Shown: positions 5,056-61,269, counted from the stretch's first letter. The stretch: DNA of 64,000 nucleotides from an uncultured Candidatus Saccharibacteria bacterium (GCA_964429815.1 CAYSCM010000001.1:320001-384000), one strand, 5' to 3'. The notes: generated from the letters alone by a model not told the origin. Program-made: numbers and translations.

Positions 5056-5113
5056 AAACCGGGGATTGGTCACACGTTTCGCTTCGCGAACTCGCGATCC
5101 CGCCCCACCGTCG

Positions 5114-5181
5114 CCTCACTCTCTCCGCAATCCAGAGAACAGAAAAGGACACGCAGAAGCGTGTCCTTTTCTGTTCTTGTT
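5114..5181. repeat. hairpin-containing direct repeat, copy 1 (about 68 nt)
   Basis: About 91% identical to 6285-6348; internal 19-20 bp stem gagaacagaaaaggacacgc/agaa/gcgtgtccttttctgttc. Confidence 0.75.
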
Positions 5182-5240: not shown

Positions 5241-6116
5241 CTAGAAGTTTATATTTATGACGGTTCCGGCTACGTCTGAAATGTGGAAATAGGGTGGAGG
5301 TGATAAGGATTCAGAATTGAAAACGAAAGGATGTGAGGTTGTGGAAATACCGTCGCTTGCCTTGAAGGAGATCTGAAAAGTCGGGGTGTAGAATACTACA
5401 GTCGACATAAGATCACTTAATTTCGTTACCATCGGAACTAGATAATCATATATGCCGTCATGACCAACCGTTGCACTAATGGCTGTCATGTTTGGCGTCA
5501 ACGAAAAAGTAGAGGTTGCATTAGCAAAATGGTCATACGCGACGACCTGTATTGAACGGAAATCAATTGGAAAGGTAGTGTTCAAGGTAACCGAGCTGTT
5601 AGAAAGAACTGCGTAAATTACCTTTTTAGGAAGCACAGGAATTTGAGGACTTGCTACCGCTACTACAAGAGGCGGTGGGCCTTGTGGTGTAGGTGGTGGT
5701 GCCGGCTGGAACTCCTTTTTCTGCTGAGCAATTAACATATTCATCTTATTCTCTAAGTCCTGTATTGCGGCCGTTGTCGTGGGGGCGCTTTGACCGTCAG
5801 CACTTGTCGAAACCTGACTGATATGTTTCCGCGTAAGGGGACCGACATAACCCGACGCAGGAGAAATGCCCTCTTTAATTTGGAACGCGATTACAGCCCT
5901 CTTTGTCATAGGTCCGAAGAATGAAGTAATCGGTCCGGAATATACATTTTTTAATGTAAGAAATTGCTGAAGAGCAGCAACATCAGCACCTCTGATTCCT
6001 AGTGACAGGTTTCTATTGAAAGTAGCGTCAGCAAAAGCTACTAGAGGCAAAACTGCGAATACCAAAAGAAGTTTCTTCATTGAATACAATATGCAACAAC
6101 TGGCGCCGTTAAGCAA
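5241..6116 (-). CDS. secreted protein with peptidoglycan-binding (PG_binding_1-like) domain and Pro-rich linker
   Basis: 291 aa; signal peptide MKKLLLVFAVLPLVAFA; GIRGADVAALQQFLTLKN...TKRAVIAFQ motif; PAPPPTPQGPPP linker. Confidence 0.7.
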   Translation of the reverse strand: MLNGASCCILYSMKKLLLVFAVLPLVAFADATFNRNLSLGIRGADVAALQQFLTLKNVYSGPITSFFGPMTKRAVIAFQIKEGISPASGYVGPLTRKHISQVSTSADGQSAPTTTAAIQDLENKMNMLIAQQKKEFQPAPPPTPQGPPPLVVAVASPQIPVLPKKVIYAVLSNSSVTLNTTFPIDFRSIQVVAYDHFANATSTFSLTPNMTAISATVGHDGIYDYLVPMVTKLSDLMSTVVFYTPTFQISFKASDGISTTSHPFVFNSESLSPPPYFHISDVAGTVININF

Positions 6117-6284
6117 AATTACTCGAATCCGTCAAAGTGTGAGATTTTGTTCATTGCGGGGTAATTGGTCACGGATATTTCGCTCGTCGTCGCTCGCGAA
6201 ATTCCGCGACCCCGGCTCGGCATCGAAATCCGCTGATTTCGATATGCCTGCGCCTTGCAATTCCCGCCGCGAGGCAAGTAGTTG

Positions 6285-6348
6285 CCTCGCTCTCTCCACA
6301 AACCAGAGAACAGAAAAGACACGCAAAAGCGTGTCTTTTCTGTTCTTG
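6285..6348. repeat. hairpin-containing direct repeat, copy 2
   Basis: Same 68-nt unit as 5114-5181 with paired G/C single-base deletions on both stem arms; directly abuts 3' end of tRNA-Met. Confidence 0.75.
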
Positions 6349-6420
6349 TTGCGGGGGCGGGAATTGCACCCGCGACCTCAAGGTTATGAGCCTTGCGAGC
6401 TACTGCTGCTCCACCCCGCT
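6349..6420 (-). tRNA. tRNA-Met (anticodon CAU); initiator-like overall layout with A1:A72 mismatch
   Basis: Manual fold: AGCGGGG/UG/GAGC-AGCAGUA-GCUC/G/CAAGG-CUCAUAA-CCUUG/AGGUC/GCGGG-UGCAAUU-CCCGC/CCCCGCA-A; no encoded CCA. Confidence 0.8.
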
Positions 6421-6493: not shown

Positions 6494-6822
6494 GAGGCTT
6501 TGCCGTTGTATTTCTTTCGGCCGCGCTTAAATTCTTTGAGCACTTCGTCAGAGATGAGGAGAAATTCCTTCTGCCCACCATCGTCCACGTGCTTTTTGCG
6601 CCGAATCGGAATTTTCATCCAAAGGGTCCTTGAGCGGGTGTAGAGGTAGATCACCTCTACGGGTCCCTCGTCGGAAAAGACGCCGACATCCTTTCGAGGA
6701 TCCTCCGGTCCAAAACCTTTCTTATAAATGTGCTGCGGTTCCTTGGGATCGTCGTTTTTCTCGATGTAGGGCATCCCATGCGGGATGTCGCGAAAGTGCA
6801 TGAGTCCCAATTTCATGACCAA
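6490..6822 (-). CDS. hypothetical protein
   Basis: 110 aa ORF, basic C-terminus, followed by terminator. Confidence 0.45.
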   Translation of the reverse strand: MVMKLGLMHFRDIPHGMPYIEKNDDPKEPQHIYKKGFGPEDPRKDVGVFSDEGPVEVIYLYTRSRTLWMKIPIRRKKHVDDGGQKEFLLISDEVLKEFKRGRKKYNGKAS

Positions 6823-6979
6823 CCCCCTGTGCTCCTTTTTCCTACTTGATGATGTGATGGAAATAGAGTTGCGTCAACGAACAAAGCCCAATTCAAGTTT
6901 TTATTTTGCGTAACCTGGTGGACGCTGTTGGAACTAAAATACGTGAAAATCAGGAATGCATTTATATTCCCGATCTATC

Positions 6980-7303
6980 CTAAGAATCACCCTCAATCAT
7001 CTCGCCCACCAAAAAGTCGCAGCCATTAGGGCCGACGACTGCCGTGTGCTCCTTACTAGGTGGGACATCAAATCGGTCACCTTCTTTAAGGGTTACTTCT
7101 TCATCACCAAACTGAAACGTGAGTCCGCCGCCAAGTATGTACATGCTGACTTTGTCCTTGTGGACATGCGCCGGGTACTTCGTTCGTGCGTCATCATGCC
7201 ATTCATACACGTGAGGGAATCCTTCGTCAGCCAATTTGTGCTTCAATACCTCTTTATCCATAACTGAATTGTAACAAAAATGGACTATCTTTCGGATAGT
7301 CAT
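6980..7303 (-). CDS. cupin-domain protein
   Basis: 107 aa; cupin_2-like His cluster HVHKD...; beta-barrel pattern. Confidence 0.65.
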   Translation of the reverse strand: MTIRKIVHFCYNSVMDKEVLKHKLADEGFPHVYEWHDDARTKYPAHVHKDKVSMYILGGGLTFQFGDEEVTLKEGDRFDVPPSKEHTAVVGPNGCDFLVGEMIEGDS

Positions 7304-9842: not shown

Positions 9843-9889
9843 TGTTTTTGCAAAACGGGCGAAATTGGCTAGTATGTTCATTGTTTTGT

Positions 9890-9962
9890 GCCACCTTAGC
9901 TCAATTGGTAGAGCAACGGTATCGTAAACCGTAGGTTCCCGGTTCAAGCCCGGGAGGTGGCT
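9890..9962 (+). tRNA. tRNA-Thr (CGU)
   Basis: GCCACCU...ACGGU-AUCGUAA-ACCGU...CCCGG-UUCAAGC-CCGGG-AGGUGGC-U. Confidence 0.9.
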
Positions 9963-12619: not shown

Positions 12620-14278
12620 ATGACCAAGAAGGGACATAAATACATTTTCGTGATAGGGGGCGTCATGTCGGGAGTCGGCAAAGGCATCGCCGCCTCCTCG
12701 ATCGGCAAAATCCTTCAAGCGAAGGGTTTTATTGTAAATCCCGTCAAAATCGACCCCTACCTCAATGTCGATGCGGGCACCATGAACCCGACCGAGCACG
12801 GGGAAGTCTTCGTGCTTCGGAGCGGACTTGAGACCGATCAGGACATGGGCAACTACGAGCGTTTCATGGAGCTCGATCTCACGAGCGAGGATTACATGAC
12901 CTCGGGCATGGTCTATCAATCGGTTATCAAGCGTGAGCGCAGTCTCGGCTATCGGGGGAAGTGTGTTGAGGCGATTCCCCATGTACGCGATGAAATTATC
13001 GGACGTATTGAGGAGGCTGCGAAAAAAAATGGCTCCCAGATCTCCATTATCGAAATTGGGGGCACCATCGGCGATTTCCAAAACGCTCTCTATATAGAGG
13101 CGGCACGCATCATGAAGATGGAGCACCCTGATGACGTGCTCTTCATCATGGTCTCTTATTTGCCGGTACCCGGGAAGCTCGGCGAGATGAAGACAAAACC
13201 AACGCAAAATGCCGTACGTCAGCTCAATTCCTACGGCATCCAGCCGGACATAATCCTCGCACGAAGTGCGGTGCCCCTCGACCGTAAACGCAAAGAGAAA
13301 CTTGCTATCTGGTGTAACGTGCGTGCCGATCATGTCATCTCCGCGCCTGATATCGAAAGTATTTATGAAGTACCGCTCAATTTCGAAAAGGACGGACTCG
13401 GAGACATACTCCTCGAACAGCTCAAAATAAAGGCCGCAGGGCGCAAGTCCGATCTCCGCGCATGGAAAAATTTTGTCACCAAGATCCTCAACGGAAAAAC
13501 CGAGCTTCAGGTGGCGATCGTGGGCAAGTATTTCGATACGGGGGATTTCGTCCTCTCCGATGCCTACATATCCGTCATCGAGGCTATTAAATTCTCTGCC
13601 GCCAAGCTCGGTGTGCGGGCGAAAGTGTCCTGGCTCAACTCAAAAGATTTCCAAAATGGTGCGGCAAAACTCGCATCTCTCAAAAAATTCCACGGCATTA
13701 TCGTCCCAGGTGGTTTTGGGGAAACTGGCATCGAAGGAAAAATAGCGGTTATTCGCTATGCACGCGAGAACAAAATTCCCTACTTTGGGCTCTGCTACGG
13801 CATGCAGCTTGCCGTCGTCGAATTTGCCCGCAATGTATTGAAGCTCAAGGGCGCTCATACGCGGGAGATCGACAGCAATCCTACGCATCCGGTCATTGAC
13901 ATCATGCAAGATCAAAAAAAGAAACTCGCTCAAGATGATTACGGCGGCTCCATGCGGCTTGGCGTCTATCCGGCCCACCTCAAGCTGAGAACGCTAGCAC
14001 GGGAGGCCTATAGGAGGGACATGATCGAAGAGCGTCATCGGCATCGCTACGAGGTGAACCCCGACTACGTGGCGAAATTCGACGGCTCCGACATGCTTTT
14101 CTCCGGCGTCTCGCCGGATGGGGTTCTCATGGAAATCATGGAGCTCAAAAAAACTGTCCATCCGTTTTTCCTGGGCACTCAGTTCCACCCAGAGCTTCAG
14201 GCGCGCCCGCTCCACCCCCACCCGCTCTTTACGGCTTTTCTCGCCGCCGCGCTTTCTCGCAAAAAGCGCTCGCGATAA
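12620..14278 (+). CDS. pyrG: CTP synthase
   Basis: 552 aa; N-terminal KYIFVIGGVMSGVGKGI, C-terminal glutamine amidotransferase GLCYGMQ. Confidence 0.95.
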   Translation: MTKKGHKYIFVIGGVMSGVGKGIAASSIGKILQAKGFIVNPVKIDPYLNVDAGTMNPTEHGEVFVLRSGLETDQDMGNYERFMELDLTSEDYMTSGMVYQSVIKRERSLGYRGKCVEAIPHVRDEIIGRIEEAAKKNGSQISIIEIGGTIGDFQNALYIEAARIMKMEHPDDVLFIMVSYLPVPGKLGEMKTKPTQNAVRQLNSYGIQPDIILARSAVPLDRKRKEKLAIWCNVRADHVISAPDIESIYEVPLNFEKDGLGDILLEQLKIKAAGRKSDLRAWKNFVTKILNGKTELQVAIVGKYFDTGDFVLSDAYISVIEAIKFSAAKLGVRAKVSWLNSKDFQNGAAKLASLKKFHGIIVPGGFGETGIEGKIAVIRYARENKIPYFGLCYGMQLAVVEFARNVLKLKGAHTREIDSNPTHPVIDIMQDQKKKLAQDDYGGSMRLGVYPAHLKLRTLAREAYRRDMIEERHRHRYEVNPDYVAKFDGSDMLFSGVSPDGVLMEIMELKKTVHPFFLGTQFHPELQARPLHPHPLFTAFLAAALSRKKRSR

Positions 14279-16032: not shown

Positions 16033-16262
16033 TATGAATGTCTCAACCACGACGCTTCTCGTGCAAAAATCTTTCGCGGGGAATCCCCCGGTCGAGCTCA
16101 ACGCGCTCCAGCGCTTCCTCGAGCCGCATGCGACGACCATCGTTCATGCGTGGGTCGTACTCTGGATCCTAACCGCTCTGTTCGTTTTGTTGAAACTGCA
16201 TCGAGACTATCGTTCTCGTAGATAGAAAAAAGACGAAGACATGCTAGAATCACGCCGTTATA

Positions 16263-16333
16263 TTGCGGGATCGTCTAATGGTAGGACACCAGGTTCTGGC
16301 CCTGGTAATCTAGGTTCGAGCCCTAGTCCCGCA
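16263..16333 (+). tRNA. tRNA-Gln (CUG)
   Basis: UGCGGGA...CCAGG-UUCUGGC-CCUGG...CUAGG-UUCGAGC-CCUAG-UCCCGCA-G; U1:A72 as in bacterial tRNA-Gln. Confidence 0.85.
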
Positions 16334-16447
16334 GCAGCAGTCAGCGCAGTATCGTGCGAGACCGGAGAGCCTCAGAACTCAAAGGTCCGCCGATTCGCTG
16401 AATGTACTATTCCGTTATTGCATATCCGGTGAGTCCGGTATTCAGAA

Positions 16448-16480
16448 CAAAAATCGCCCCTTACAGGGCGATTTTTGTTG
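16448..16480. terminator. bidirectional intrinsic terminator between tRNA-Gln and recombinase gene
   Basis: aaaaatcgcccc-ttac-agggcgatttttgtt; A/T runs on both sides. Confidence 0.75.
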
Positions 16481-16493
16481 GCCGACTATTTCT

Positions 16494-24397: not shown

Positions 24398-24424
24398 ACC
24401 TATAAGCGTCTATTCCGTTATGGG

Positions 24425-24443
24425 ATATTCCAAAATGGAATAT
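24425..24443. promoter_or_regulatory. perfect palindromic operator atattcca-aaa-tggaatat in divergent XRE/nuclease promoter region
   Basis: 8-bp perfect inverted repeat with 3-bp spacer, 28 nt upstream of XRE start. Confidence 0.6.
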
Positions 24444-24527
24444 TCAATGTTAGGCTACGAATGTCCGACAAAGGCAAGAGTTGGTAACCTCCTTCGCAAG
24501 CCTCCGAATCTAAGTTAGGAACACCAC

Positions 24528-24995
24528 ATGGACCCTATATCCAATAACAAGCGTAATACCATCCTTACCGGCGTCTCCGGCGAGTACTACGTCGCCGCTG
24601 AACTTTCGCGTCGTGGATACCTCGCCTCTATCACACTTCGCAACACCAAAGGCGTAGACATCCTCTGCTCAAACGCGGAGGCGAGTAAATCTGTAGGTAT
24701 CCAGGTAAAGGCAAAGTCGGGTAATGATCGTGTATGGATTCTCAACGAGAAAGGAGAACATTACTACGCGAACAATCTCTTTTACGTTTTTATCAACATC
24801 GACGACGGTCTCAACAAGCATCCTGAGTACACGGTCGTGCCCAGTAAGGTAGTTGCCGAGTACGCTCGCGAGTCGCACGCGAGGTGGTTAAGCGAACCGA
24901 AGAAGGACGGCAGCGCTCGCAAAGACACGACTATGCGGAAGTTTCAGGATCCGGAGGAGAAGTATCTTGGTCGGTGGGATCTGTTGGGTCTTTGA
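24528..24995 (+). CDS. PD-(D/E)xK-fold nuclease-like protein (YraN/Hjc-like motif)
   Basis: 155 aa; GVSGEYYVAAELSRRGY...RNTKGVDILC resembles GxxGE...GEIDLIA core. Confidence 0.5.
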   Translation: MDPISNNKRNTILTGVSGEYYVAAELSRRGYLASITLRNTKGVDILCSNAEASKSVGIQVKAKSGNDRVWILNEKGEHYYANNLFYVFINIDDGLNKHPEYTVVPSKVVAEYARESHARWLSEPKKDGSARKDTTMRKFQDPEEKYLGRWDLLGL

Positions 24996-27851: not shown

Positions 27852-27868
27852 AGCTGTACTCTAGCATA

Positions 27869-31082: not shown

Positions 31083-31790
31083 TTGTTCGAGAAGATGATC
31101 TCGGCTAACGGTTCACCTACCCTTCATGACGGCTCCTGGTACAATGCGGCGATGAATCCGCATGCACGAGGAGGAATTCTCGGTATCGTCCTTGTGCTCG
31201 TGCTGTGCTCAAGCATTGCGGCGTATGTTCTCTTTCGCAGCGGGCTCGTCGAGACCGGGGGAGAGGGAGTGTTTGAGACAGGTCCATGCGAACTGATCGC
31301 GATGGTGACGACGACCGTCTACGCAAGGCCTGACAGGGACGCCTCCGTATCGGGGTTTCTCTCGTCGCAAGAAAAAGTAGGCGTCTCCGGCATAACTGCC
31401 AAAGGTTGGTTCGGCTTCGATCCCGGAGTTGCCCACACGGTATCTATCGGTCCGTTCCGACTGCGCTACATTGCACCGGACACAGGTGCCCGCCTCTCCG
31501 GAAACTGCGCTGACGTACCCACAGTGATCACACTTCCTCCGTTCGTGTGTTTTACTATGGCCGGAACGGTAACTCCCATATACTCACGTCGCTCCTCGAC
31601 CTCTTCCATCGTCGCGGTCATGCACCTCGGCGATTATGTCGAGGTGACCGGCAAGACCGACGTTGAAGGCGCTCATGATTTCGTCCGGGTGGACTCGCGA
31701 GAAGGGAGTCTGCCAGGGGATATAGTCGGGTGGGTAGAAGGCTCCTCCACCAACCTCAATGGCGCTTGCGGGCGACTGCCGCACCTCTAA
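31083..31790 (+). CDS. hypothetical membrane-anchored protein
   Basis: 235 aa; one TM then extracytoplasmic domain. Confidence 0.5.
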   Translation: MFEKMISANGSPTLHDGSWYNAAMNPHARGGILGIVLVLVLCSSIAAYVLFRSGLVETGGEGVFETGPCELIAMVTTTVYARPDRDASVSGFLSSQEKVGVSGITAKGWFGFDPGVAHTVSIGPFRLRYIAPDTGARLSGNCADVPTVITLPPFVCFTMAGTVTPIYSRRSSTSSIVAVMHLGDYVEVTGKTDVEGAHDFVRVDSREGSLPGDIVGWVEGSSTNLNGACGRLPHL

Positions 31791-38168: not shown

Positions 38169-38306
38169 GACTTGACTTGCTATACTAGGGTCGTAGTGTC
38201 TTGATACCTACGCTAACGGGCTGAAAACAGTTATAACGCGGCTTACCTTAAGCGTATTTTCTCCGCGAGGCCGTGGTAATAGCCTCGAGTCCGTATCGTC
38301 ATCATT

Positions 38307-45634: not shown

Positions 45635-46762
45635 ATGAAAAAACTCATAGTCGGCGCGGCGGCCCTCTTTGTCGTTGCCCTACCGGTCTCTGCCGCTACG
45701 ATGCGCGCGGGTAACGATTATATGCTCGGCCAGAACCAGACGGTCCCGGACAATCTCTACGCGGCAGCAAGCAACCTTACGCTCTCGGGCGTCGTCTTCG
45801 GTGACGCGCTGGTAGCGGGAAGGACGGTGCTCCTCAATGGGCTCGTCAAGGATGACGTCGCGGCCGCAGGGGGCACGGTTCAGCTCCTCTCGACGGTAAA
45901 CGGCGATGCGCGCGTCGCCGGAGGCGACGTAACGATCGGCGGCAAGATCGCCGGCGACCTCATCGTCGCCGGCGGCACCGTGCATGTGCTCCAGAGCGCT
46001 GTCATCGGAGGGGACGTCGTCATGCTCGGCGGGGCGCTCACCTTCGACGGGGTCGCTCTCAAAGATGTGCGCATGATAGGGGGCAGTGCTCTCATCCACG
46101 GCCTCATTACAGGCTCACTACGCGCAAATGTCTCGAAGACGGTCACCGTCGCGACCGGCGCTTCCATTAAGGGGAACTTCGATTACGCCGCCCCGACCCC
46201 GGCGACGGTCGAGAAAGGCGCCATAATCGGCGGGAAAATAACCGCGACGACGACACCGGCAGCGCCAAGCGAAACGCAGGCGATATTCGCAACCCTCGTC
46301 TCCATCGCACTCCTAACGAAATTCATTATCTTGGCGCTCGCCGCGGCGCTCCTCGTCTATTTCTTCCCCCGTGCGAGCTCCTCCGTCACGATGAAGACGC
46401 TCGCTGAAATTCCAAAGAACACCATTCTCGGCTTTACCGCGCTCGTCGTCATTCCGATTGCCTCCGTTCTCCTTATGGCGACAGTGCTTTTCTTCCCCTT
46501 TGGCATCCTCGTCCTCATCCTCTACGCGTTCCTTCTCGGGCTCTCCAAGCTCTACGTAGGCGTCGTCGCGGGGGCTCTTCTTTCTAAGTGGTTCGTGAAA
46601 AGGGAGGGGGTGAATGTTGGCTTTGCCATTCTCGGTACGGCGGCTATCGAGCTCGCCTCACTCATTCCTATCGTCGGCTGGATAGTCTCAGCGGTGTTTT
46701 GCCTCGCTACGTTTGGGGCCATTATGCGCATCCTCAGCGCCCGCTACGGCGCGCAGCGATAG
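45635..46762 (+). CDS. bactofilin-like (polymer-forming, beta-helical repeat) protein with C-terminal TM region
   Basis: 375 aa; signal peptide; repeated GG(D/T)V..(G/A)G motifs; about 4 C-terminal TM helices. Confidence 0.5.
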   Translation: MKKLIVGAAALFVVALPVSAATMRAGNDYMLGQNQTVPDNLYAAASNLTLSGVVFGDALVAGRTVLLNGLVKDDVAAAGGTVQLLSTVNGDARVAGGDVTIGGKIAGDLIVAGGTVHVLQSAVIGGDVVMLGGALTFDGVALKDVRMIGGSALIHGLITGSLRANVSKTVTVATGASIKGNFDYAAPTPATVEKGAIIGGKITATTTPAAPSETQAIFATLVSIALLTKFIILALAAALLVYFFPRASSSVTMKTLAEIPKNTILGFTALVVIPIASVLLMATVLFFPFGILVLILYAFLLGLSKLYVGVVAGALLSKWFVKREGVNVGFAILGTAAIELASLIPIVGWIVSAVFCLATFGAIMRILSARYGAQR

Positions 46763-47168
46763 TGTGGATAGCGGATTCTGTTATACTACGCTCTGGCACG
46801 CGTGAGTTCCTGCTTTTTACTGTCTAGCGTAGTGAGAGAAATCAAAGCTTGCTTTGGTTTCCGAGCGAGCGACGACAGCAAGGGTTCCAAGAACCCTTAG
46901 TTTGCCCCACAGCGCAAGGTCCTTCTTGTTAGATGGGGCAAATCGGAGATGAAAACAGCCCCCGCTCTCCCCTATATCAGCACAGCTGATCGGGCGATCA
47001 TCAGCATCGCTCGATGTTGATGATATAGCCGCGGCGGGCCGTTTTCGTTTTGCGCCTTACTTCAGGCTTATTTTTGCAAAAGAGAATGAATAAAACCGGG
47101 CGTCCCAATCGTCGGCACGTTCAGCGCCGACGCACGGAAGTAGCAGCGCCTGAGCGTAAACTTTGCAG

Positions 47169-47206
47169 TGGCGGCTCGTGCAAAAGCGAGCCGCCTTTTT
47201 CTTTTG
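47169..47206 (+). terminator. intrinsic terminator ending a non-coding stretch upstream of nth
   Basis: tggcggctcgtgcaaaagcgagccgcc + tttttctttt. Confidence 0.8.
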
Positions 47207-47223
47207 ATGCTACAATCCCGGCC

Positions 47224-47892
47224 ATGACTAAGGGGAAGGTGATTGAGCGGAGGGGAAGAATCTTGAGAATGAACACACTCCTGAAGCGGCTTTACCCAAA
47301 TGCAAAAATTGCCCTCCGTTACAGAAACAATTGGGAACTTCTTGTTGCGGTGCAACTTTCCGCGCAGTGCACGGACAAAACGGTCAATCGCGTTACGGAA
47401 AAGCTCTTCAAGAAGTACAAAACGCTCGACGACTACGTAAAGGCAGGTCCTCGAGAGTTCGAGCGGGATATTTTTCAAACGGGGTTTTACAAAAATAAGA
47501 CCAAAAACATTCTTGCGGCAGCGAAGCTCATCAAAGAAGACTACGGCGGCAGAATCCCTAAAACGATGAAAGAGCTGCTCCTCATTCCCGGTGTTGCACG
47601 GAAAACCGCGAATGTTGTTTTAGGGAACGCGCACGGTGTTGTCGAGGGTATCGCCGTCGACACGCACGTGCGCCGCTTTGCGCTCAAATTCGATCTAACC
47701 GACCACCGCGACCCGGTCAAAATCGAGCGCGACCTCATGGAGCTTTTGCCTAGGAAGGAGTGGTTTGCCTTTACCTACCGCATTATCGAATACGGCCGGA
47801 AGGTCTGCCCAGCACGCGTTCACGATTGTGCGGCTCATCCCCTTAGCAAAATCTACGCTCTCGCTGCGGGGCGCTTTCCCAAGGCGAAGTAA
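47224..47892 (+). CDS. nth: endonuclease III-family HhH-GPD DNA glycosylase
   Basis: Start at MTKGKVIERR after the terminator (ORF track's longer N-terminus runs through the terminator); HhH (LLIPGVARKTANVVLGNAHG) and catalytic Lys/Asp region; only 2 Cys at C-terminus. Confidence 0.75.
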   Translation: MTKGKVIERRGRILRMNTLLKRLYPNAKIALRYRNNWELLVAVQLSAQCTDKTVNRVTEKLFKKYKTLDDYVKAGPREFERDIFQTGFYKNKTKNILAAAKLIKEDYGGRIPKTMKELLLIPGVARKTANVVLGNAHGVVEGIAVDTHVRRFALKFDLTDHRDPVKIERDLMELLPRKEWFAFTYRIIEYGRKVCPARVHDCAAHPLSKIYALAAGRFPKAK

Positions 47893-48874: not shown

Positions 48875-49069
48875 TCATTGACGCGATCGAAGGACGGCGG
48901 CTACGAAGAGCGCGAGGGCGATAAGGCCGATTCCTCCCCATAGCAATATTCCCCCAACGGTAAGTCCCCATGCATCGAAAGCGGGGAGCATGGACGGTTC
49001 CGTCGTTGCCGCACTTAGTATATCAGGATGATACAATGGCGTCGTGAACGCAGCGCCGACGTCCCGCAA
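48875..49069 (-). CDS. hypothetical small membrane protein
   Basis: 64 aa; one TM; overlaps start of mutY-like gene, so uncertain. Confidence 0.3.
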   Translation of the reverse strand: MRDVGAAFTTPLYHPDILSAATTEPSMLPAFDAWGLTVGGILLWGGIGLIALALFVAAVLRSRQ

Positions 49070-55087: not shown

Positions 55088-55170
55088 GTGGGAGCTACTC
55101 TAGCAGACCCCGCTTTGGCGTGCAAGTATTTGGACTGCCTTTACATATTAGTGAACCTTGACTATCATGC

Positions 55171-57519: not shown

Positions 57520-57523
57520 AAAA

Positions 57524-57560
57524 CCGCGCCCTTTCCACAAGGGCGCGGTTTTTTTCTCTC
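57524..57560 (+). terminator. intrinsic terminator after groEL
   Basis: aaaaccgcgccctttccacaagggcgcggttttttt. Confidence 0.85.
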
Positions 57561-57571
57561 ATTGCGCCGAC

Positions 57572-58153
57572 ATGGAGTTAGACTATACTAGTACCACCAT
57601 GACCTACATCCTCATTGGCGTAGTCGTTATCGTGGTGCTCTGGACGATCTCTGCCTTTAACCGCTTTGTGACCCTGCGCAATCGCACGAGTGAGGCATGG
57701 GCGGATATCGATGTCCAGCTCAAGCGCCGCTACGACCTCATTCCCAACCTCGTTGAGACCGTGAAGGGCTACGCTGCGCATGAGAGCGGCCTCATCGAGC
57801 GGGTGACCCAGGCGCGCGCCAGCGCGATGCAGGCGGGCTCTACTGCCGATAAGGCGAAAGCGGAAAACGCACTCTCACAGACGCTCAAATCGCTCTTTGC
57901 AGTGGCGGAGAATTATCCGAACCTCAAGGCCAACGAAAATTTCCTCGAGCTCCAACGCGAACTCTCCGATACCGAGAACAAAATCCAGGCAGCGCGCCGC
58001 TTCTACAACACCAATGTGCGCGACCTCAACACGGCGCTTCAAGTTTTCCCGGGTAATCTCATAGGTCCTTCCTTCGGCTTCAAACCCGCGGAATACTTTG
58101 AACTCGGCGAGGCGGATGCCGCTGCTCGAGAGCCGGTCAAAGTTTCTTTCTAA
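57572..58153 (+). CDS. lemA: LemA-family protein
   Basis: Start after groEL terminator (ATG 57572, or 57599 MTYILIG); N-terminal TM plus LemA conserved NRFV...RRYDLIPNLVETVKGYA. Confidence 0.8.
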   Translation: MELDYTSTTMTYILIGVVVIVVLWTISAFNRFVTLRNRTSEAWADIDVQLKRRYDLIPNLVETVKGYAAHESGLIERVTQARASAMQAGSTADKAKAENALSQTLKSLFAVAENYPNLKANENFLELQRELSDTENKIQAARRFYNTNVRDLNTALQVFPGNLIGPSFGFKPAEYFELGEADAAAREPVKVSF

Positions 58154-58183
58154 AACCCTTTTTCGTTTTAGTTTAAAGCCACC

Positions 58184-59430: not shown

Positions 59431-59447
59431 CAATCCTTACTCCACGA

Positions 59448-59491
59448 TGCATCGCGCGATTCCTTGAGGAATCGCGCGATTTTTATTTTTG
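59448..59491 (+). terminator. intrinsic terminator
   Basis: atcgcgcgattcc-ttga-ggaatcgcgcgat + tttttattttt. Confidence 0.85.
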
Positions 59492-59873
59492 TCTCGCACC
59501 CTACCGTCTCAGAAGCGACTGAAGGGAAGTAATGAAAACCGGGATGCTTAAAATTCCCGTCAGGTATTCTACTGATGTGTAGGCCTCTCCCGTTTTAAAG
59601 ATGTCATGGAAAAGGAGAAAATCAACGAACAAAAAGCCGACTATTAAAACAATGTCGAGTAGTTTTCTCATGCTCACATAACTAGTATACAAAGACTGGG
59701 TTTCTTAGCGGTCGGCGTAATTGTGTGTTACAACTCTTGGGTATTTAGGAGGCGTCGCATGGTGCTTTGAACCGTAGGTTTAAAGAGCTGGAGGCGCGAC
59801 GGCGGCGAGGCGGGGTCGCGGAAATTTTCAGTAGAAAATTATCCGTGACCTAGTGCACATTTGTTTGCAGGGC

Positions 59874-59958
59874 GGAGGGTTCGCATAGCGGTCTAGTGCG
59901 CACGCTTGGAAAGCGTGTGAACCGAAAGGTTCCGAGGGTTCGAATCCCTCACCCTCCG
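59874..59958 (+). tRNA. tRNA-Ser (GGA), class II with long variable arm
   Basis: GGAGGGU/UC/GCA-UAGCGGUCUAG-UGC/G/CACGC-UUGGAAA-GCGUG/UGAACC-GAAA-GGUUCC/GAGGG-UUCGAAU-CCCUC/ACCCUCC-G; same layout as E. coli tRNA-Ser(GGA). Confidence 0.85.
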
Positions 59959-60066
59959 CCCTGTATGCAAGGCTCGAGTGAATTTTCATCTCTCCGCCTC
60001 CGCCCAATCTTTACATACATGCATATCGGGTTACGGGTTCTTTAAAAATTGTAAAGAAAAGGGCAC

Positions 60067-61127: not shown

Positions 61128-61269
61128 ACATTCCAAGGCTTACCATAAGGCTTTTATGCTGTGGAAAGCCGGAGACCACGTCGGAAGCGTCTCTGATAAA
61201 ATAGGAGTGTGCAACAAATCTTGCCCGGTCGAACGGCAAGTGATTACCCATTAACAATCTTCAATACCT

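Follow-up and report, generated by a model that had tools for sequence, protein, structure and literature searches.

What is carried by the long gap between a DUF8173-type membrane protein gene and nth in a 64,000 nucleotide (nt) window, the whole stretch analysed here, of the genome of an uncultured bacterium (GCA_964429815.1, CAYSCM010000001.1:320001–384000)? The gap extends over positions 46763–47223, from the stop of the DUF8173-type gene (45635–46762, + strand), its 5' neighbour, to the nth start. As the original prediction had stated, it contains no credible open reading frame (ORF). That prediction had put the gap forward as a candidate non-coding RNA (ncRNA). What stands of this proposal is a non-coding + strand unit that runs from a credible promoter to intrinsic terminators and includes a conserved block; what does not is the idea of 460 nt forming one conserved structured RNA. 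The reading preferred here, held with about even confidence, is that the region is a small, lineage-restricted candidate small RNA (sRNA) locus with its own promoter, of the type derived from a 3' untranslated region (UTR), which has been enlarged by hairpin insertions. To our knowledge, regulatory RNAs of the candidate phyla radiation (CPR) are almost unknown, and this is because the bacteria are uncultured and their genomes tightly packed. The host genome belongs to this group: it is of the Patescibacteria, of the Paceibacteria/Parcubacteria type, and its closest named relatives by nth and GroEL are Wolfe-, Kaiser- and Adlerbacteria, with an identity of at most 76%. Two Logan contigs, of 17.5 and 4.5 kb, are identical to the window along their entire length.

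Relatives were traced through nth (72–74% identical), DUF8173 (33–58%) and GroEL (75–87%), with one of the loci, L092, stopping short of nth. The element was found in only one of them. This relative is represented by the loci L083, L084 and L085, which are one species recovered from three samples with identical sequence. It is the next best match to the window for each of the three genes (nth 74%, DUF8173 58% at the protein level and GroEL 87% identical), it has the same gene order, and its DUF8173–nth gap is approximately 195 nt. Four blocks are common to the two species. The first is TGTGGATA(G/A)CG, followed by eight non-conserved bases, TGnTATACT and ACGCT. The second is GTTTG(C/T)CCCACAGCGCAAG, a variable loop and CTTGTTAG(A/T)TGGGGCAAATCGGAGATGAAAA, and the third is a GC hairpin, CCCC.GC...GCGGCGGG(C/T)CGTTTTCGTT. 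The fourth is ATGCTACAATC together with the nth start. In all, about 130 of the 460 bases are conserved, while 320 of the 460 are absent from the L083 locus. A check of conservation in relatives, as the original prediction had proposed, thus gives a divided answer: the promoter, a hairpin (HP1), its tail and a first terminator (T1) are kept in L083 and the rest is not there. These conserved parts (the promoter at 46779–46787, HP1 at 46900–46943 with the tail, and T1) had not been singled out before.

The HP1 hairpin (46900–46943, + strand) has an outer stem of 10 bp, in which 46900–46909 pairs with 46934–46943. Above this is a 4x4 internal loop, with CAGC opposite UAG(A/U), and then a second stem of 4 bp formed by CAAG (46915–46918) and CUUG (46925–46928), closed by an apical loop that is variable. 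Each of the 14 pairs can form in the window and in L083, the one difference being a change from C-G to U·G. Overlapping the 3' arm of HP1 and the A-tract of T1 is an invariant, purine-rich tail of 16 nt, AAAUCGGAGAUGAAAA (46940–46955, + strand), which includes a Shine-Dalgarno-like GGAG-AUG. HP1 and the tail together are identical to L083 at 60 of 63 positions, against a DNA identity of 63–76% in the flanking genes, one relative being compared. The exact match of 22 nt that covers the tail (46934–46955) ranks fifth by length in the 18 kb of synteny with L083. It is the only one of the longest matches that lies outside coding sequence, the others being in the genes for an MFS-transporter, RNase J and GroEL. 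Conservation beyond the neutral level in this relative, in a place where there is no conserved ORF, suggests that the block is under strong purifying selection, as in an ncRNA gene. The internal loop and the GGAG-AUG tail are likely, from their sequence, to be contact surfaces for a protein or a complementary RNA.

The tail leads into terminator T1 (46951–47051, + strand), which has its 5' arm at 46951–46965, its 3' arm at 47031–47046 and its U-tract at 47042–47051. In L083 this terminator has a loop of 5 nt, is terminator-like by the scanner and has a folding z-score of -6.7. The window copy retains both arms and the U-tract. The scanner missed it on account of the 65-nt loop, which results from an insertion described below. 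Between the species, T1 shows one compensatory change from G-C to A-U and two changes from C-G to U·G, and one pair is broken in the window.

The search for further copies was taken beyond this pair of species. No match was found with nhmmer when the 461 nt were compared with 80 nth loci of GTDB species representatives. A regular-expression motif search across the loci had matches in the window's own species and in L083/84 and nowhere else, and a metagenome scan for CCCACAGCGCAAG-N(2-20)-CTTGTTAG found the L083 species only. A viral scan with an 18-mer of the tail had no match. A covariance model of HP1 plus tail (R1), run against the window and the related loci (approximately 690 kb in all, the last set being searched unfiltered), identified no homologue or paralogue. 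Within the sequences covered, the HP1 element occurs at the junction of DUF8173 and nth in two species and nowhere else. In another relative, L097, a stretch at 5565–5625 reads AGATAAGAAATGCCCCTGCC...GGGGATAGCG / GCGGGGGC and then a T-tract, and weakly resembles the 5' arm of T1 (CCCCTGCC is identical to L083), with E = 0.2 for R1. After this arm comes GGTGGGGATAGCG, which resembles the TGTGGATAGCG box found upstream in the window. This resemblance may be a rearranged remnant or may be due to chance.

The candidate promoter of the unit, P1, is an extended -10 sequence, TGTTATACT, at 46779–46787 on the + strand, 17 nt past the DUF8173 stop. The TGG that follows it is not a start codon. Its counterpart in L083 is TGCTATACT, and no copy of the motif TGnTAnAnT is present on the - strand of the region. 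Transcription from P1 would start at about 46794–46795. The first segment of the predicted transcript (46795–46827, + strand) is around 70% identical to L083 when the two sequences are read side by side (ACGCT..GCAC.CGTG.G.TTC). This is no more conserved than the coding regions are, and MAFFT places the 5' part of L083 differently.

Within the -35 zone of P1 is the TGTGGATAGCG box (46763–46773, + strand). Read as its reverse complement, CTATCCACA, the box agrees with TTATCCACA, the DnaA-box consensus, in 8 of the 9 bases (46763–46771, - strand). The L083 box, TGTGGATAACG, is at the same distance from the -10, and there TGTGGATAA is a perfect 9/9 DnaA box (9883–9891). The eight bases of the spacer between box and -10 are not conserved between the two. 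The window has 14 DnaA-box-like 9-mers (TTATCCACA with at most one mismatch) against 7.6 expected, and the 20.7-kb L083 locus has 9 against 3.3, a number reached in 0 of 100 shuffles. Three of those in L083 are within 400 nt of each other, at 13569–13955. The conserved box TGTGGATA(G/A)CG in the -35 zone hints at regulation of P1 by a DNA-binding protein, and nothing more. A replication origin was considered and rejected, there being a single box, no AT-rich region and no change of skew; the GC content is 51–54%.

The remainder of the region is made up of three insertions that are specific to the window and absent from L083. The first (ins1; 46828–46897, + strand) is approximately 70 nt, with boundaries known to within about 10 nt, and contains two local hairpins (46838–46848 with 46851–46861, and 46880–46887 with 46891–46898). 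The second (ins2; 46971–47030, + strand) is a branched palindrome of 60 nt and occupies exactly the position of the 5-nt T1 loop of L083. It is the imperfect long palindrome of the original prediction, with arms at 46972–46982/47018–47028 and 46997–47009/47012–47024, and has terminal inverted repeats of 8–11 nt (CTATATCA / TGATATAG). The third (ins3; 47049–47206, + strand) is approximately 155 nt and fills the space from the T1 U-tract to the nth promoter. It includes the 7-bp hairpin cgtcggc/gccgacg, found at 47110–47132 as described, the GGAAGUAGCAGC stretch at 47136–47147, which had been pointed out as GGAAGTAGCAGC, and a second terminator, T2. This is the strong terminator of the original prediction and was called by the scanner. 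It is an intrinsic terminator on the + strand, with a stem at 47170–47195 of 10 pairs (8 of them G-C), a loop of 6 nt and then TTTTTCTTTT, the T-tract being at 47196–47205. Most of the features first noticed in the region are therefore species-specific, since the palindrome, the 7-bp hairpin, GGAAGUAGCAGC and T2 all lie in ins2 or ins3. Comparison of the two sequences indicates that the three insertions have either been gained in the lineage of the window or lost in that of the relative. None has another copy in the 64-kb window, where blastn-short found the query itself only.

Folding bears out the earlier description of the region as structured. The minimum free energy of 46763–47210 on the + strand is -188.5 kcal/mol, compared to -146.8 +/- 5.8 for shuffled sequences (z = -7.2), and 0 of 100 shuffles were as stable. 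The - strand of the same interval has z = -5.5, and the predicted + strand transcript (46794–47206) has z = -7.9. By segment, the z-scores are -3.5 for ins1, -3.8 for HP1, -5.7 for T1 plus ins2, -3.7 for ins2 alone and -4.0 for T2, while the body of ins3 (47046–47168) is at -1.3, which is not significant. The fold is a chain of local hairpins, with no supported long-range helices and no single global structure. Energies on the + and - strands are -24.9 and -13.2 kcal/mol for L083 HP1, -28.2 and -18.9 for L083 T1, and -23.6 and -16.3 for ins1. An RNA from the + strand is favoured by these energies, by the presence of G·U pairs and by the direction in which pairs have changed to wobbles. In a GC-corrected scan of the window by 120 nt, the region is within the top 25 windows and is not the most extreme. 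The most strongly folded are two copies of a hairpin element at 5110–5169 and 6281–6339, which are approximately 60–70 nt, 88–89% identical and have a near-perfect stem of 18–19 bp (AGAACAGAAAAGGACACGC / GCGTGTCCTTTTCTGTTCT). The copy at 6281–6339 abuts the 3' end of a tRNA-Met (6348–6420, - strand).

The 3' boundary of the element is set by the promoter of nth, and here the layout of promoters in the genome is informative. There are 14 copies of the extended -10 motif TGnTAnAnT in the window. An ATG, GTG or TTG lies 5–7 nt downstream of eight of them, against 1.7 expected and at most 4 in any of 100 random sequences. Almost all of the gene starts that were inspected have such a copy. Copies at gene starts with the start codon 5–7 nt on are at 31137, 41276, 45620, 47208 and 49029 on the + strand and at 27866 and 7276 on the - strand. 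Two further copies precede tRNAs, at 16242 (+) and 7622 (-). Examples are TGCTACAAT-agcgcc-ATG for DUF8173, TGCTACAAT-cccggcc-ATG for nth and TGATACAAT-ggcgtc-GTG for a second glycosylase gene. Genes are therefore typically leaderless and have their own extended -10 each, even within runs of genes on the same strand. The relatives L083, L095 and L097 have this leaderless layout as well. Copies without a start codon at the leaderless distance are found at 38178–38186 (+), 61194–61202 (+), 55097–55105 (-) and 49017–49025 (-), and could belong to leadered genes or to other non-coding transcripts.

For nth, the promoter TGCTACAAT and the leaderless start at ATG 47224 occupy 47208–47226 on the + strand, and L083 has kept the arrangement as TGCTACAAT-N6-GTG. 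Homologues of 221–222 aa begin with MTK.K at the position of ATG 47224, which from this alignment is the true start. An extended nth frame (47050–47892) had been noted to run through terminator T2, and it does so, yet it is an artefact because the homologues start at ATG 47224. The 58-aa extension had no real homologue among 1.84 billion representatives, the sole match being 12 of 30 residues counted ten times in a repeat protein. A pseudogene or a true N-terminal extension of nth was ruled out on these two grounds. The gene caller had over-extended nth in L095 (246 aa) and L083 (240 aa) also. The leaderless layout thus helps to fix gene starts, and here corrects an over-long nth frame.

With a conserved, genome-typical candidate promoter that lacks a start codon, a conserved hairpin with its tail, and then a terminator, a small RNA gene is the simplest account. 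P1 would start a + strand transcript at about 46794, just after the DUF8173 stop, and this RNA would have its terminator in common with the DUF8173 mRNA. The L083 product would be an RNA of approximately 120 nt. In the window, the products would be approximately 255 nt if they end at T1 and approximately 410 nt if they end at T2. The insertion of ins2 in the T1 loop probably weakens T1, in which case T2 would stop read-through ahead of the leaderless nth promoter. The RNA would most likely act in trans via HP1 and the tail, through pairing with a target or binding of a protein. A unit of this kind, running from promoter to terminator with a core as conserved as the coding sequence of GroEL or RNase J, would give searches of metatranscriptomes a concrete candidate. 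On this reading, the locus presents a small RNA gene and its terminator taking up hairpin insertions, one of them in the loop of a terminator that is backed by a second one. The practical value is limited, since the element is in two genomes only.

Several observations weigh against a small RNA gene. There are two distinct sequences of the element in all. Of the 30 pairs in HP1 and T1, 25 are invariant, three have changed from C-G to U·G, one from G-C to A-U and one is broken, yet such covariation counts have no statistical power with two sequences, as 266 of 500 shuffles reach an equal result. For the proposed RNA, both the start of transcription and the 3' ends are predictions from the sequence. 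When a complement of the tail was sought in the window, the only candidate had 3 mismatches in 16 and was unconvincing. The relative L097, whose nth is 71% identical, keeps the downstream order nth-HAD-PspC-glycosylase-MFS-RNase J, and its nth is preceded by DUF378, then a plain terminator and then a leaderless promoter, with no HP1; the element is therefore dispensable and very narrow in distribution. Finally, HP1 can be read through in one frame, ..LVCPTAQ..C*, without an internal stop in either species, up to a TAG that the two have in common. Neither of the two substitutions in the 5' arm of HP1 changes an amino acid in this frame, and the indel in the loop is 3 nt.

The principal alternative is that there is no independent RNA gene, and that the region is the 3' UTR and terminator of DUF8173, insulating the leaderless nth promoter. 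HP1 would then be a hairpin for the stabilisation or processing of the mRNA, and the insertions neutral, hairpin-rich filler. This is possible, although clearly on the unlikely side. The DUF8173 gene has no terminator of its own ahead of T1 in the window or in L083, which fits such a role. The element is also found only where DUF8173 precedes nth (the window and L083) and is absent where DUF378 does (L097), and the body of ins3, which is not significantly structured, would be expected of filler. A 3' UTR leaves two things unexplained, however. One is the retention of TGTGGATA.CG and TGnTATACT on either side of a variable spacer, right after a stop codon. The other is the sequence invariance of the HP1 internal loop and the tail, as a stabilising hairpin needs structure only.

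A transcript of approximately 410 nt (46794–47206) might alternatively be one large structured ncRNA in which all of the hairpins matter, with the version in the relative being reduced. The z-score of this whole + strand transcript, the folding of each insertion by itself with the + strand favoured, and the placing of ins2 exactly at a helix tip, in the manner of an expansion segment, are all in its favour. It is nevertheless improbable. Of the 460 nt, 320 are missing from the only relative, and the long-range closing helix that is predicted needs bases upstream of the predicted transcription start. The ins3 body has a z-score of -1.3, no Rfam family matches, and no second copy or homologue is present in the approximately 690 kb of related loci. 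A bolder form of the preferred reading, as improbable as the large ncRNA, is that HP1 and the tail are the working part of a previously undescribed, Patescibacteria-specific regulatory RNA, with the insertions as functional expansion segments and with DnaA controlling the promoter through the box in the -35 zone. If this were true, replication status or DNA damage would be coupled to a repair cluster (dinB, nth and the second HhH-GPD glycosylase).

Alternatively, the conserved block could be a cis-acting leader or attenuator of nth, with HP1 as sensor and T1 as an expression platform controlling read-through from P1. In such a system the 3' arm of HP1 (UGGGGC) would pair alternatively with the 5' arm of T1 (GCCCC) as an antiterminator. 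The order in L083 of promoter, hairpin with invariant internal loop and terminator directly upstream of nth is suggestive of this, as is the GGGGC/GCCCC complementarity in the window, and the L083 gap has a weak, non-significant resemblance to Phe_leader (E = 2.8). The features to be expected of a riboswitch or attenuator leader for nth were not found, though, and this explanation is very doubtful. A conserved leaderless promoter that belongs to nth itself lies downstream of T1 (and T2), and an mRNA reading through from P1 would offer no Shine-Dalgarno site for this gene. In the window, T1 is separated from nth by 155 nt and the strong T2. The antiterminator is only 4–5 bp, and weaker in L083, and no riboswitch family matches.

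That the region encodes a small protein is highly improbable. Two frames come into question. One is the LVCPTAQ(G/A)..C* frame described above, which extends over 46849–46932 in the window and, as read by hand, over 9922–9978 in L083, where it has 18 codons from a GTG. The other is an ORF that begins with a GTG 14 nt past the -10 in both species (46802–46900 in the window). The equal spacing of this GTG, the open frame across HP1 with its common TAG, the synonymous substitutions and the 3-nt indel speak for translation. The window GTG ORF, however, is out of register with the LVCPTAQ frame, and the starts of the latter are non-homologous, being a TTG in ins1 in one species and a GTG near the transcription start in the other. 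Neither a Shine-Dalgarno site nor a leaderless arrangement is present. Conservation extends past every stop codon in the region, with 100% identity persisting for 26 nt beyond the TAG. Matches by tblastx are in several frames on both strands, which is because the conservation is at the nucleotide level. No frame among the ORFs of at least 20 aa is common to the window and L083 from start to stop, and the small ORFs of the region had no Pfam match.

A role of the conserved parts as DNA, such as a site for DnaA or another protein, an origin-like site or a recombination site with the hairpins as palindromic binding sites, would be in keeping with the perfect DnaA box of L083 (8/9 in the window), the enrichment of such 9-mers there and the large indels in neighbouring intergenic regions of three relatives, yet is equally improbable, as there is one box and no cluster, no AT-rich unwinding element and no skew switch, and the pairs altered in the stems remain compatible as G·U on a single strand, a signature of RNA and not of a DNA palindrome.

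The small RNA locus preferred here lies in a run of + strand genes that comprises dinB, DUF8173, nth, a HAD hydrolase, PspC and the second HhH-GPD glycosylase. Once ORFs of 70 aa or more had been assigned greedily in the window, just four of the remaining gaps equalled or exceeded this one in size. Two of them, at 24398–24930 and 57520–58183, turned out to contain real genes. The other two, at 16033–16493 and 59431–60066, each contain a tRNA, and the approximately 440 nt upstream of the tRNA-Ser in the latter were outside the check.

The window and two of its relatives differ by large indels in the neighbouring intergenic regions, and these are at different sites in each genome. The stretch between dinB and DUF8173 is 463 nt in L083 (8267–8730, equivalent to L084 3756–4219), where it includes a Cys-rich ORF of 123 aa with CxxC...CxxC and a terminator; the window has 23 nt there. 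Between nth and the HAD gene, L097 has a non-coding stretch of 306 nt (6679–6984) and the window 14 nt. This stretch has z = -3.2 and ends with a terminator and a leaderless promoter, and has no Rfam match or similarity to the window. The intergenic content of the cluster is therefore fluid, as the large insertions and deletions differ among the window, L083 and L097. In L095 there is an apparent gap of approximately 525 nt (1158–1685) 5' of an nth homologue that is 72% identical. An uncalled Cys-rich ORF of about 115 aa is inside it, followed by a terminator and then a leaderless promoter, TGTGATACAAT.

The checks against known RNA families that had been proposed (SRP_bact, 6S, tmRNA, RNase P and riboswitches) placed the region in none of them. 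At the gathering thresholds of Rfam 15, the window has seven tRNAs and no other family, and scans of L083 and L097 at these thresholds gave chance-level matches only. ARAGORN found no tmRNA, and the region is blank in the tRNA/tmRNA scan. With permissive filters, no model for the signal recognition particle (SRP) RNA, 6S RNA, tmRNA, RNase P or riboswitches matched the region at E <= 10. The best results of permissive scans were mmgR in 46600–47400, with 19.1 bits against a gathering score of 41, and in L083 (9850–10070) the Phe_leader match already mentioned, with 15.8 bits against 55. Searches of the literature on ncRNAs of the CPR or on leaderless promoters in Patescibacteria returned nothing relevant.

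The mmgR / suhB family (RF00519), although it has the best Rfam score in the region, is matched by its GC hairpin and U-tract only (47139–47210; E = 0.26). This is a generic terminator, in a segment that L083 lacks, and the family does not include the region. The faint likeness to domain IV of SRP RNA that had been suggested was not borne out either. The GGAAGUAGCAGC stretch loosely recalls GGAAGCAGC of domain IV, but it has neither the GNRA-capped helix nor the two internal loops, the hairpin that precedes it (47110–47132) has a 9-nt loop, ACGUUCAGC, and it sits in ins3, which L083 does not have.

Other comparisons concern kinds of element rather than families. Like OLE, GOLLD, ROOL, HEARO and raiA, the region is long, gene-free and rich in hairpins, and its folding z-score is very low. 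It differs from these in having no Rfam match, only about 130 conserved nt and hairpins that are local. Similarly, ins2 is like miniature inverted-repeat transposable elements (MITE) and repetitive extragenic palindromic (REP) sequences in being a 60-nt palindrome with terminal inverted repeats in an intergenic terminator. A MITE/REP-like repeat was not supported as an identification, since ins1–3 have no second or dispersed copies within the 64 kb searched, of a contig of approximately 500 kb, and no clear target-site duplication.

The closest parallel is with 3'-UTR-derived sRNAs that have their own promoter ('type I'), such as DapZ and MicL of enterobacteria. As in these, the candidate promoter is at or after the end of the upstream coding sequence and the terminator would be in common with the upstream mRNA. 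In its short body, too, a hairpin is followed by a conserved single-stranded stretch and then by a terminator. There is no kinship with the type I sRNAs in sequence or in Rfam, the element being known from the sequence of two uncultured Patescibacteria genomes, and the window copy differs from them further in being enlarged approximately threefold by insertions. The locus is a new and very narrowly distributed candidate, of a kind that is familiar.

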